Part shown: one piece after another, positions 1 to 3,000 of the stretch
Layout: each line of letters starts with the position of its first letter
How positions within the stretch are numbered: the stretch's first letter is position 1
Virus record (IMG/VR): IMGVR_UViG_2718218139_000004
Span: 1 to 16,560 of that record
From: a virus
Lineage: Duplodnaviria > Heunggongvirae > Uroviricota > Caudoviricetes
Length of the DNA: 16,560 nt
Reading direction: 5' to 3' (one strand)
Position numbers: made by a program

Positions 1-3000
1 TCATTTGTTGATTTCAATTTTGTCCCATTCTCTCCCTCGGCTGTCCCTATACCGCGCCGCCATTGAATCTGATTTATGTCCGAGAAGACGTTGAGCAAAC
101 TTATCGCCAATCTGATTGCGGTATAGTCTCGCCGACAGGCTACGCAGTTCATGGAATGTTGGCGGGTCTCCATCAAATGAGAGTCCAGATGCATTTCTCG
201 CCTTTGTAAAATACTTCGATACTGTTTTCGGGGAAAGTGGTTCGTGATGCGTTGATGCAATTATAGTGTCACTGCCGCTGGCCTCCCTGCATTTCTGTAG
301 TATATCAGCCAATGAGATATTGAGCGCGTCAATCGTTAGCGTCAGCGGAATGGCGAGCTTAGCCCCTGTTTTACCCTGTTCAATGTGAAGATGGTTGTCG
401 TTTATGTCTGACCATTTCATTTTGCACAAATCGCCGACTCTCTGACCTGTAACGACGGCCAAATCCATCGCAAGCCTCAGCCAGATTGGGAGAGGTTCGG
501 CTGCATGGTGAATCGCGACATACTCATTAGCTGTCAGCCTTGAGCGCCTTACTTCTGACTTTGCTGTGCGGGTTGCTGTTACCGGATTCGTAGCCACATG
601 CCCCTCGGCTATTGCCTCACGAAAAACGTCAACAAGGGTTGACCTGATTAATTTTGCGGAAGCCGTTTTACCTTCTGCTACGTAGGTGTTTAGCATTGCT
701 GCCACCTCTTTCGTTGATATGTCAGCGAGCGGTTTGTCCGGCAATTTTCTTCGGATTGCCCTGATTTTGCTGGCGTAGTCGAGTAGAGTTTTCAGCCTGA
801 TACCCCTCTCGCTGAGGATTGTTTCATATCGGCCAAGCCACGCATGAAGAGTGATTGCGTCAGCGCCTTTAATTCTGTCTATCAGTGACTCACGCCTGCT
901 CCCGGATAGCAACTCAATATTGGCCTGTATTGCTTCAGTGATTGCTATCCTCCTGTCTCGGCCTAATCCGAACTCTTTACCCGTCCTTGGGTCCCTGTAG
1001 CAGTAATATCCATTGTTTCTTATATAAAGGTTAGGGGGTAAATCCCGGCGCTCATGACTTCGCCTTCTTCCCATTTCTGATCCTCTTCAAAAGGCTACCT
1101 GTTACTGGTCGATTTAAGTCAACCTTTACCGCTGATTCGTGGAACAGATACTCTCTTCCATCCTTAACCGGAGGAGGGAATATCCTGCATTCGCGCACCC
1201 ATCGACGAACTGTTTCAAGGCTTCTTGGGCGTCGCTGGCGTGCATTCCACTCCTGAAGTGTCAAGTACATCGCAAAGTCTCCGCAATTACACGCAAGAAA
1301 AGCCGCATTGATGCGGCGATGGTAGGTCTGGATATCATTGAGCCATGAACAGGCCTCATCGAGTGTGAGGCTGTGGTTAGTCCTTTCGTAACTCGCTGAT
1401 TCTCCTGTAAGTCTCTGGTGCTTTGTTTCCGTGTATCTTCATTTCAGACTTCAACAGAGCAACGAGGGAATCCCATTCGTTGAGGATGCCTTTGAATGCC
1501 GGAACGCGCTTTGCAACCTTGTCGAATGAATCTCTGATTTCTGGAATCTTCTCAACAAGAGCAACGCATCGTCGGAAGTCTGCTGCGTCATGGGGAGCGC
1601 CGAAGTGATGACCATAGATATTCTTTTTCAGTCCACATGCGATTGAGGCAAGAGTTGCACTACTGATGCCGACATCGCCAGTCGATTGCCATTTCAAAAC
1701 CTTCATAGCCAAATCTGACATTTCTTGTCTCCATAAAACAAAACTCGCCGTAGCGAGTTCAGATAAAAGAAATCCCCGCGAGTGCGAGGATTGTTATTCA
1801 CCTTTGACGGCAAGTTGCAGGTTAGCCACGGTTAACTCCTTGCTGTGTGGCGTCGAGTAATAAATCCCACAACCGCTGAGAGCAATTTCCGCATGTACAG
1901 CGTTGACCCACAACGTTTATCGCGTTGCTGATTTCCGGCGTTACCTGTTTAGGAACCATAACCCAACCATCCGGAGTTACCGGAAGCGAGAACGGCAGCA
2001 CATCTCTGTGAACAAGTTTTTGCTGTGACAGGTTATCCAGAACTTTCTGTACTGCTGCATCACCGAATACACCAAGCGCATCTGCCATAACTCCTACAAC
2101 CTGATAAGCCTCAGCGCATACCGTGGAAACCATGAGCAAATGATGATTGATGGCTTATCAGAGCGTGGAAACGTCAATCACTGGCTGCTTAATGGCGGTG
2201 GCTGGTTCTTTAATCTCGATTACGACAAAGAAATTCTGGCTAAAGCTCTTGCCCATAAAGCAGATGAACTTCCGTTAATCATCGAACTGGTGAGTAAAGG
2301 AAAAAAATATGTCATCTGCCATGCCGATTATCCTTGTGATAAATACGAGTTTGGAAAGCCAGTTGATCATCAGCAGGTAATCTGGAACCGCGAACGAATC
2401 AGCAACTCACAAGACGGGATCGTGAAAGAAATCAAAGGCGCGGACACGTTCATCTTTGGTCATACGCCAGCAGTGAAGCCACTCAAATTTGCCAACCAGA
2501 TGTATATCGATACTGGCGCAGTGTTCTGCGGAAACCTCACATTGATTCAGGTACAGGGAGAAGGCGCATGAGACTCGAAAGCGTAGCTAAATTTCATTCG
2601 CCAAAAAGCCCGATGATGAGCGACTCACTACTGGCCACAGTTTATTGGTTTTCGTAACTGAGTCATTTTATTATTTTATTGCAACTTTTAATCTTTTATA
2701 GTGCGAAATAAATGGAGCTAGCATTCATTTCGCACTTTATGTTTTTGTTGGACTTATGTTATTTTGATTGAATTCAATTCAGTTAAAAAAAGAAGGTGAT
2801 TGCTCCATTTATAAATGAATAGTCATCCCCTGTCTTGAATTCTGATGTTACTTTATTAAATGCTAGTGTGAAGGCTACAGGTGCATACCCAATTGTTGCG
2901 CCAACTTGATATTCATCAACAGTTTTGTTTAGCGATACTGTTGTTTGTTTCGTCTGTATTGTTTTTCCTTCGAGAGTATAGTTGCGATTGACATCTCGTC

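Follow-up and report, generated by a model that had tools for sequence, protein, structure and literature searches.

Morons of lambdoid phages are independent, compositionally distinct cargo units that lie between phage genes. The late antiterminator Q of phage lambda belongs to the Antiterm family (PF03589), whose best-matching stretch in lambda Q comprises residues 113-199, and as the criterion for this domain we took the zinc-binding, DNA-binding and RNA polymerase-binding region of the protein. Phage 82 Q belongs to the other family, PF06323 (E=6e-95). At the pR' promoter of phage 82, an extended -10-like element induces a pause at +25/+26, the base at +25 being U (PMC5001585). For phage 434 (OL657226; Feiss et al. 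2022, PMC9119081), the GenBank record contains a 90-nt CDS annotated as 'antiterminator-like protein ... Protein Q P03047, N-terminal fragment'; the text of the genome announcement (PMC9119081) is silent on this stub, which only the GenBank annotation names, and no literature dealing with phage 434 together with lpxR was found. In prophage Sp3 of Escherichia coli O157:H7 Sakai, ECs_0814 is annotated as the lipid A 3'-O-deacylase gene lpxR and the next gene as phage antiterminator Q. A passage of PMC6393859, citing Ogawa 2018, describes lpxR transcription as Pch/Ler dependent.

We analyzed 16,560 nucleotides of a Caudoviricetes genome (IMG/VR record IMGVR_UViG_2718218139_000004, positions 1 to 16,560), hereafter referred to as the window. 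Our reading of the locus, to which we give a probability of roughly 0.9, is that its truncated lambda-type Q gene (Q') marks, as an inert scar, the left-hand side of an old lambdoid mosaic joint and that the late genes are under Q82-type control. The lambda-derived part of the locus comprises the following features.

2122 to 2571, + strand: ninI', the remainder of a 5'-truncated ninI (lambda Nin221 Ser/Thr phosphatase) covering its 3' two-thirds, with 96.5% identity to lambda 43440-43889
2568 to 2657, + strand: Q', the lambda Q stub, a 29-codon ORF that equals lambda Q in codons 1 to 20; the 9 codons remaining before the stop are unrelated to it
2629 to 2641: left recombination joint, where lambda homology ends and an AT-rich island begins (9/12 matches, patchy)

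The block homologous to lambda ninI-Q spans 2122-2638 (517 nt, 96.5% identity), with clean identity ending at 2628 and patchy matching continuing to about 2640. The listed ORF at 2140-2571 is ninI' read from an internal Met. An earlier note on this DNA had described a lambda-type Q cut down to a 20-codon stub, and this description was borne out: 20/20 residues and the first 61/61 nt of Q' are identical to lambda Q (J02459, from 43886), and a tblastn comparison with lambda Q matched residues 1-24 of that protein at 2568-2639 (E=7e-9). The interval given for the stub, 2568-2700, was right at its start and overshot at its end, since the stop codon is at 2655-2657; this stop also rules out that Q' is the 5' end of a longer alternative gene. 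The ATG of Q' overlaps the ninI stop codon (ATGA), exactly as in lambda. A tblastn search with full-length lambda Q detected no further lambda-Q-like segment in any frame of the window, and blastn of lambda 42500-45500 matched only 2122-2638, the lambda pR', qut and 6S region being absent from the window. The Q' ORF has no Pfam match, the Antiterm domain (PF03589) not being present in it. In a near-identical genome, PGAP labels ninI' 'metallophosphoesterase, missing N-terminus' and Q' a pseudogene, 'antitermination protein, missing C-terminus'. Judged from sequence, the Q' ORF is thus predicted to be devoid of every functional part of lambda Q as well as of a lambda qut to act on, and we consider it most likely to be an inherited, inert scar of a module swap.

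The lambda block is directly followed by an AT-rich island of 1.4 kb (about 2641-4070), the features of which are listed below together with the right joint.

2700 to 2752: hairpin (2700-2736) plus tail to 2752, between the Q' stub and the 3' end of lpxR
2783 to 3742, - strand: lpxR, lipid A 3'-O-deacylase, an intact cargo (moron) gene
3743 to 4070: spacer with a GC content of about 0.28 at the right end of the island, presumed promoter/regulatory region of lpxR
4071 to 4079, + strand: right joint, where phage 82 homology begins with the last three rus codons and stop (GGG AAT GAA TGA), from alignment with X92588

Windowed GC content fell from 0.45 at 2251-2550 to 0.35 at 2551-3000 and 0.28 at 3751-4050 and returned to 0.44-0.48 past 4051, confirming the AT-rich island that the note had placed beyond the stub. 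With a GC content of 0.28-0.42 across 2551-4050 against 0.44-0.50 in the flanks, the island is compositionally distinct, as morons are. The note had also recognized an lpxR-like gene in the island; the gene is indeed lpxR, intact over nearly the entire family profile (PF09982, E=6.8e-40, profile positions 2-320/323), and its product matches the Salmonella LpxR structure 3FID over residues 24-319 (E=3.6e-153), but it is convergent with the Q' stub rather than divergent from it as had been stated. Upstream of lpxR, the promoter scan gave only weak consensus matches. When LpxR was searched for at the protein level in one genome per species, a single Citrobacter locus was found (73% amino acid identity), and its DNA similarity was limited to the lpxR coding region (window 2783-3673).

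Between the stub and lpxR, the hairpin at 2700-2736 is followed on the + strand by a T-rich run, TTTATGTTTTTGTT, with a predicted free energy of -15.9 kcal/mol (z -3.1). On the strand of lpxR (-), it forms a perfect stem of 15 pairs with no U-tract behind it, and the predicted free energy is -19.1 kcal/mol (z -6.6). An exact-pattern scan for the hairpin region in one genome per species gave 0 matches. The element may serve as the lpxR 3' hairpin, may terminate unmodified transcription in the rightward direction, or may do both. One could imagine a co-option of the stub region as an insulator, in which the hairpin and T-run (2700-2752) would stop unmodified transcription from the nin side and protect the convergent lpxR in lysogens, and N-modified polymerase would read through to the Q82-type gene in lytic growth. 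The stability of the hairpin on both strands with a U-rich tail on the + strand only, its retention in phage 434 with one loop change, and the gene order of that phage, in which rightward transcription must cross lpxR antisense to reach Q, would all fit such a role. However, a simple terminator scan did not report the hairpin, pairing in the stem is better on the strand of lpxR, so that it may be a plain lpxR 3' hairpin, and the upstream promoter is gone from the window, so that we regard this co-option as rather unlikely. Slightly less probable still is the full scheme of a strand-specific insulator at 2700-2752 that would spare lpxR a collision with unmodified rightward transcription in lysogens and in which, upon induction, N-modified polymerase would cross lpxR antisense, shut this virulence gene off and reach Q82; if true, lpxR expression would be inversely coupled to the lytic switch. 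A role of the hairpin as insulator is compatible with the Q' ORF itself being an inert scar.

To the right of the island, a module of phage 82 type is found.

4080 to 4202, + strand: homologue of ylcG / phage 82 orf45, 40 aa, 28/39 residues identical to 82 orf45 (E=7e-20)
4217 to 4906, + strand: complete late antiterminator of the Q82 family (PF06323), 229 aa from the MNTQ start
4890 to 4918, + strand: pR'-like late promoter, TTGCAA-17 nt-TATACT, a sigma70-type match that overlaps the Q stop codon
4930 to 4938, + strand: extended -10-like element TGgTATGTT, read from the sequence, candidate sigma70 pause inducer of a Q82-type qut
4952 to 4981, + strand: tR'-like intrinsic terminator, a GC-rich 9-bp stem followed by T8

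In a megablast search against phage records, window 4071-4906 was 89.5% identical to the rus-orf45-Q segment of phage 82 (X92588). The ORF at 4080-4202 carries the YlcG family annotation in relatives. The protein encoded at 4217-4906, the start of which lies 1.56 kb downstream of the Q' stub, covers almost the whole Phage_antiter_Q profile (PF06323, E=1.4e-90, positions 1-216/220) and is identical to phage 82 Q, a protein characterized by biochemical experiments, at 202/229 residues (88%) and to phage 434 Q at 228/229 residues, V119F being the one substitution. PGAP labels the gene 'bacteriophage antitermination protein Q' in a near-identical genome, and a sequence search of the PDB with the protein returned no solved relative. 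By homology, this protein is the predicted functional replacement for lambda Q.

These data bear directly on the proposal of the earlier note that cargo had taken the place of the late activator, leaving the pR'-like promoter without an obvious cognate Q in the window, in which case the late genes would not be activated in cis. In its favor, lambda Q is indeed cut to 20 matching codons and lpxR DNA comes next. However, a complete Q82-family gene (4217-4906) stands directly upstream of the promoter and terminator, indicating a module swap rather than a loss, and the same arrangement works in the plaque-forming phage 434 (PMC9119081). Furthermore, because lambda pR' and qut are absent from the window, there is no lambda-type late promoter to be orphaned. 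We therefore consider destruction of the late activator by cargo insertion to be highly improbable and predict that the late genes of this locus are under Q82-type control.

The promoter scan as a whole showed no enrichment, 7 promoters being found against 8.1 expected from shuffled sequences, and the late promoter is accordingly a candidate. If transcription starts near 4925, as we infer, the -10-like element would lie at +6 to +14 and a T would be present at +25. An A-rich run follows the element. Set against the verbal description of 82 pR' (PMC5001585), the layout of 4890-4938 would fit. Immediately past the -10-like element, the window reads GTA, whereas GCC is reported for phage 82 (PMC5001585). 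A terminator is annotated at the same spot in phage 434, in which the promoter, pause element and terminator are identical at the nucleotide level, no differences being found in 4572-5046. Since phage 434, with identical pR' and tR' and a Q protein sharing 228/229 residues, forms plaques, at least one phage has a working Q/pR'/tR' unit of this kind. Searching the whole window against Rfam at the gathering threshold gave no matches. In a permissive scan of 2400-5200, an STnc240 hit on the pR' leader remained below threshold (28 versus 55 bits, E=0.22) and was not treated as evidence.

Over the whole of 2479-5100, the window differs from phage 434 at only 19 positions: 7 are substitutions, 4 are single-base indels and the other 8 belong to a single 8-bp indel. 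The Q' stub and lpxR are free of nucleotide differences, and one of the 19 is the missense change in Q. We then determined how widely the arrangement occurs among 5,426 complete E. coli genomes, counting a genome where at least 80% of the query was covered. The Q'-lpxR joint (query 2540-2800) was present in 619/5426 genomes, with all copies at least 98% identical, and the island with both joints (query 2600-4230) in 617/5426, essentially all at 99% identity or more. The two sets of genomes were counted separately; the closeness of these numbers suggests that the Q' left joint usually accompanies the lpxR island in E. coli. An assembly chimera or sequencing artefact is ruled out entirely by identical copies of the junction in 619 complete genomes, phage 434 and Sakai Sp3. 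Either ninI or ninH was found upstream of the joint, with homology setting in 13 nt ahead of the Q' ATG, and this places the joint earlier than subsequent homologous exchanges in the nin region.

The same data allowed us to consider whether the 29-aa Q' ORF could be a functional micropeptide, its translation coupled to that of ninI and its sequence maintained by selection. The ORF still has a ribosome-binding site upstream and the ATGA overlap with the ninI stop, and both phage 434 and hundreds of genomes carry it intact. However, all copies are near-identical by descent, and the intactness of the 29 codons is therefore uninformative on selection; the last 9 codons derive from AT-rich DNA of unrelated sequence, no protein family matches the ORF, and ninI lacks its 5' end and promoter here. 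Such a function thus appears very improbable. We propose instead that Q', as an inert scar, persists because it is inherited together with the joint.

What sets the window apart is not the Q' stub but a rare deletion at 2121/2122, defined by one further feature.

2122 to 2133: lineage-specific deletion joint from a three-way alignment, DUF550 fragment fused to ninI with microhomology CGTGG(AT)AAACCAT

The DUF550 gene fragment occupies 1822-2139 on the minus strand, and both parental sequences overlap at 2122-2133 in the three-way alignment. The joint was spanned in only 7/5426 complete genomes. The deletion took out everything from the int-xis side to about codon 76 of ninI, and no repressor, N, O, P or pR is left in the element. 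As the whole early region was removed, ninI' and Q' are without an upstream phage promoter. The lysis and morphogenesis genes further to the right are fragmentary too, and no promoter driving the Q82-type gene was identified in the decayed prophage. The element is thus a decayed prophage remnant, in which the deletion represents a second, recent event. Its pR' could be served in trans by the Q of a co-resident prophage, if that Q is of the same type.

On the basis of the homologies, their boundaries, their distribution and the identity to a viable phage, we reconstruct the order and mechanism of events as follows. Illegitimate recombination within Q codons 21-24 would have joined the nin region of a lambda-type phage (..ninI-Q) to foreign, AT-rich DNA of about 1.4 kb with lpxR, which in turn would have been joined to the last three rus codons of an 82-type module (orf45/ylcG-Q82-pR'82-tR'). 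The net event would be an exchange of lambda Q/pR' for lpxR plus Q82/pR'82 and not a loss of Q. At a pause immediately past the promoter (4890-4918), RNA polymerase would then be loaded with the Q82-type protein and carried through the terminator at 4952-4981, giving late transcription. The later deletion at 2121/2122 would have fused the DUF550 fragment to ninI and stripped the early region.

The locus illustrates that lambdoid phages swap whole late-regulation modules, Q together with its own promoter, and gain virulence cargo at the joint, and also that a truncated Q alone does not mean that late genes are deprived of their activator. Of note for pathogen genomics, the lpxR gene of EHEC/EPEC-type strains moves together with a Q82-type module, and the near-equal counts of 619 and 617 of 5,426 genomes suggest a possible use of the Q' scar as a marker of that module. 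The stub itself is already known, being annotated in GenBank (phage 434) and RefSeq, and represents ordinary lambdoid mosaicism; beyond correct annotation its significance is small.

Among known systems, phage 434 (OL657226, CPT_434_63 to _67) shares with the window the succession of ninI, Q N-terminal fragment, lpxR in reverse orientation, ylcG-like gene, Q82-like gene and terminator. It differs in being a complete, plaque-forming phage with a full ninI and the whole early region; in the window, the 5'-truncated ninI is fused to the DUF550 fragment, 8 bp are duplicated at 2665-2672, and Q has the V119F change. O157:H7 Sakai prophage Sp3 shows the same order, pphA (ninI)-lpxR-Q (ECs_0813 to ECs_0815), and is 99.4% identical over the island and both joints; unlike in phage 434, the stub is unmarked in its annotation, and, unlike the window, Sp3 has kept ninI whole, along with parts of its early-left region. 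Equivalent prophages are found in O121, O111, O103, O145 and O26-type strains.

Resemblance to lambda is confined to the first 20 codons of Q (PF03589) and the upstream ninI context, while Q codons 21-207 and the lambda pR', qut and 6S region are lacking. Phage 82 (X92588) is similar from the end of rus onward (Q 88% and orf45 72% identical), but in the window the lpxR island stands in place of rus. Its pR' (PMC5001585) would correspond by layout, in that an extended -10-like element and, further on, a terminator come after the promoter; it departs from the window in the bases after the pause element. Like other lambdoid morons, lpxR is AT-rich compared to its flanks, has a stable hairpin at its 3' end and lies between phage modules; unlike them, it opposes rightward phage transcription and sits inside a broken gene instead of cleanly between two genes.

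The early region of the prophage has been entirely lost through a deletion that left two truncated genes fused across the microhomology CGTGG(AT)AAACCAT, a joint common to only 7 of the 5426 complete E. coli genomes surveyed. This joint and the other features considered here are as follows.

Features of the window (nucleotide positions; strand where assigned)
2122-2133: deletion joint between a 5'-truncated DUF550 gene (1822-2139, minus strand) and a 5'-truncated ninI
4913-4982, plus strand: short leader running from pR' to the terminator, folding as two hairpins
6117-6291, plus strand: PasD-like Hfq-dependent prophage sRNA, assigned by probe match and gene position
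9415-9729: PerC-family regulator
10430-11765: stretch with a tail-fibre ORF that has collagen-like Gly-X-Y repeats (PF01391 and PF06820)
12133-13023: NleH, a T3SS effector kinase
13240-13986: Cif
14411-15567, minus strand: IS3-family element, copy 1
15742-16560, plus strand: IS3-family element, copy 2, reaching the window end

The 5' end of the tail-fibre ORF, whose Gly-X-Y repeats form a GC-rich stretch (GC of 0.60 to 0.68 at about 11000-11600), overlaps the terminase small-subunit ORF, and the region for head and tail morphogenesis therefore appears to have been deleted in full. No complete holin gene was recognised at 7055-7460, on the 5' side of the lysozyme gene (7460-7993), and PGAP annotates only truncated DUF1737 and YdfR fragments at the equivalent place of a near-identical genome, so that the lysis cassette looks defective. 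The late region holds virulence-associated cargo, namely, the PerC-family regulator, NleH, and Cif. The 3' end of Cif resembles relatives only as far as about 13900, the point at which insertion-sequence DNA takes over. The two IS3-family copies encode identical orfB products (272 aa) and are inverted, with their orfA ends about 170 bp from each other.

The published PasD1/2 northern probe sequence matched the window at 6251-6274 with one mismatch, and the PasD-like region ends 3' in the hairpin GGCTGCGCATTGCGCAGCC followed by T8; the region had no match in Rfam. It lies 3' of a DUF3927 ORF (5920-6078), a placing shared with EPEC E2348/69, and according to a bioRxiv survey of Pas RNAs, lpxR and Q lie no more than 10 kb from PasD in >98% of hits. 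The pR' leader gave a weak, sub-threshold Rfam match to the sRNA STnc240 (28 bits, with the gathering threshold at 55; E = 0.22), and by analogy with lambda 6S or StxS it may represent a stable short late-leader RNA.

Compared with the plaque-forming phage 434 (OL657226), the window carries an 8-bp tandem duplication, ATTTTATT, at 2665-2672, shortly past the stop codon of the truncated Q ORF, and one missense change, V119F (position 4571), in the Q82-type antiterminator gene. The truncated Q ORF, the lipid A deacylase gene lpxR, and the pR'/tR' promoter-terminator region are otherwise the same as in phage 434.
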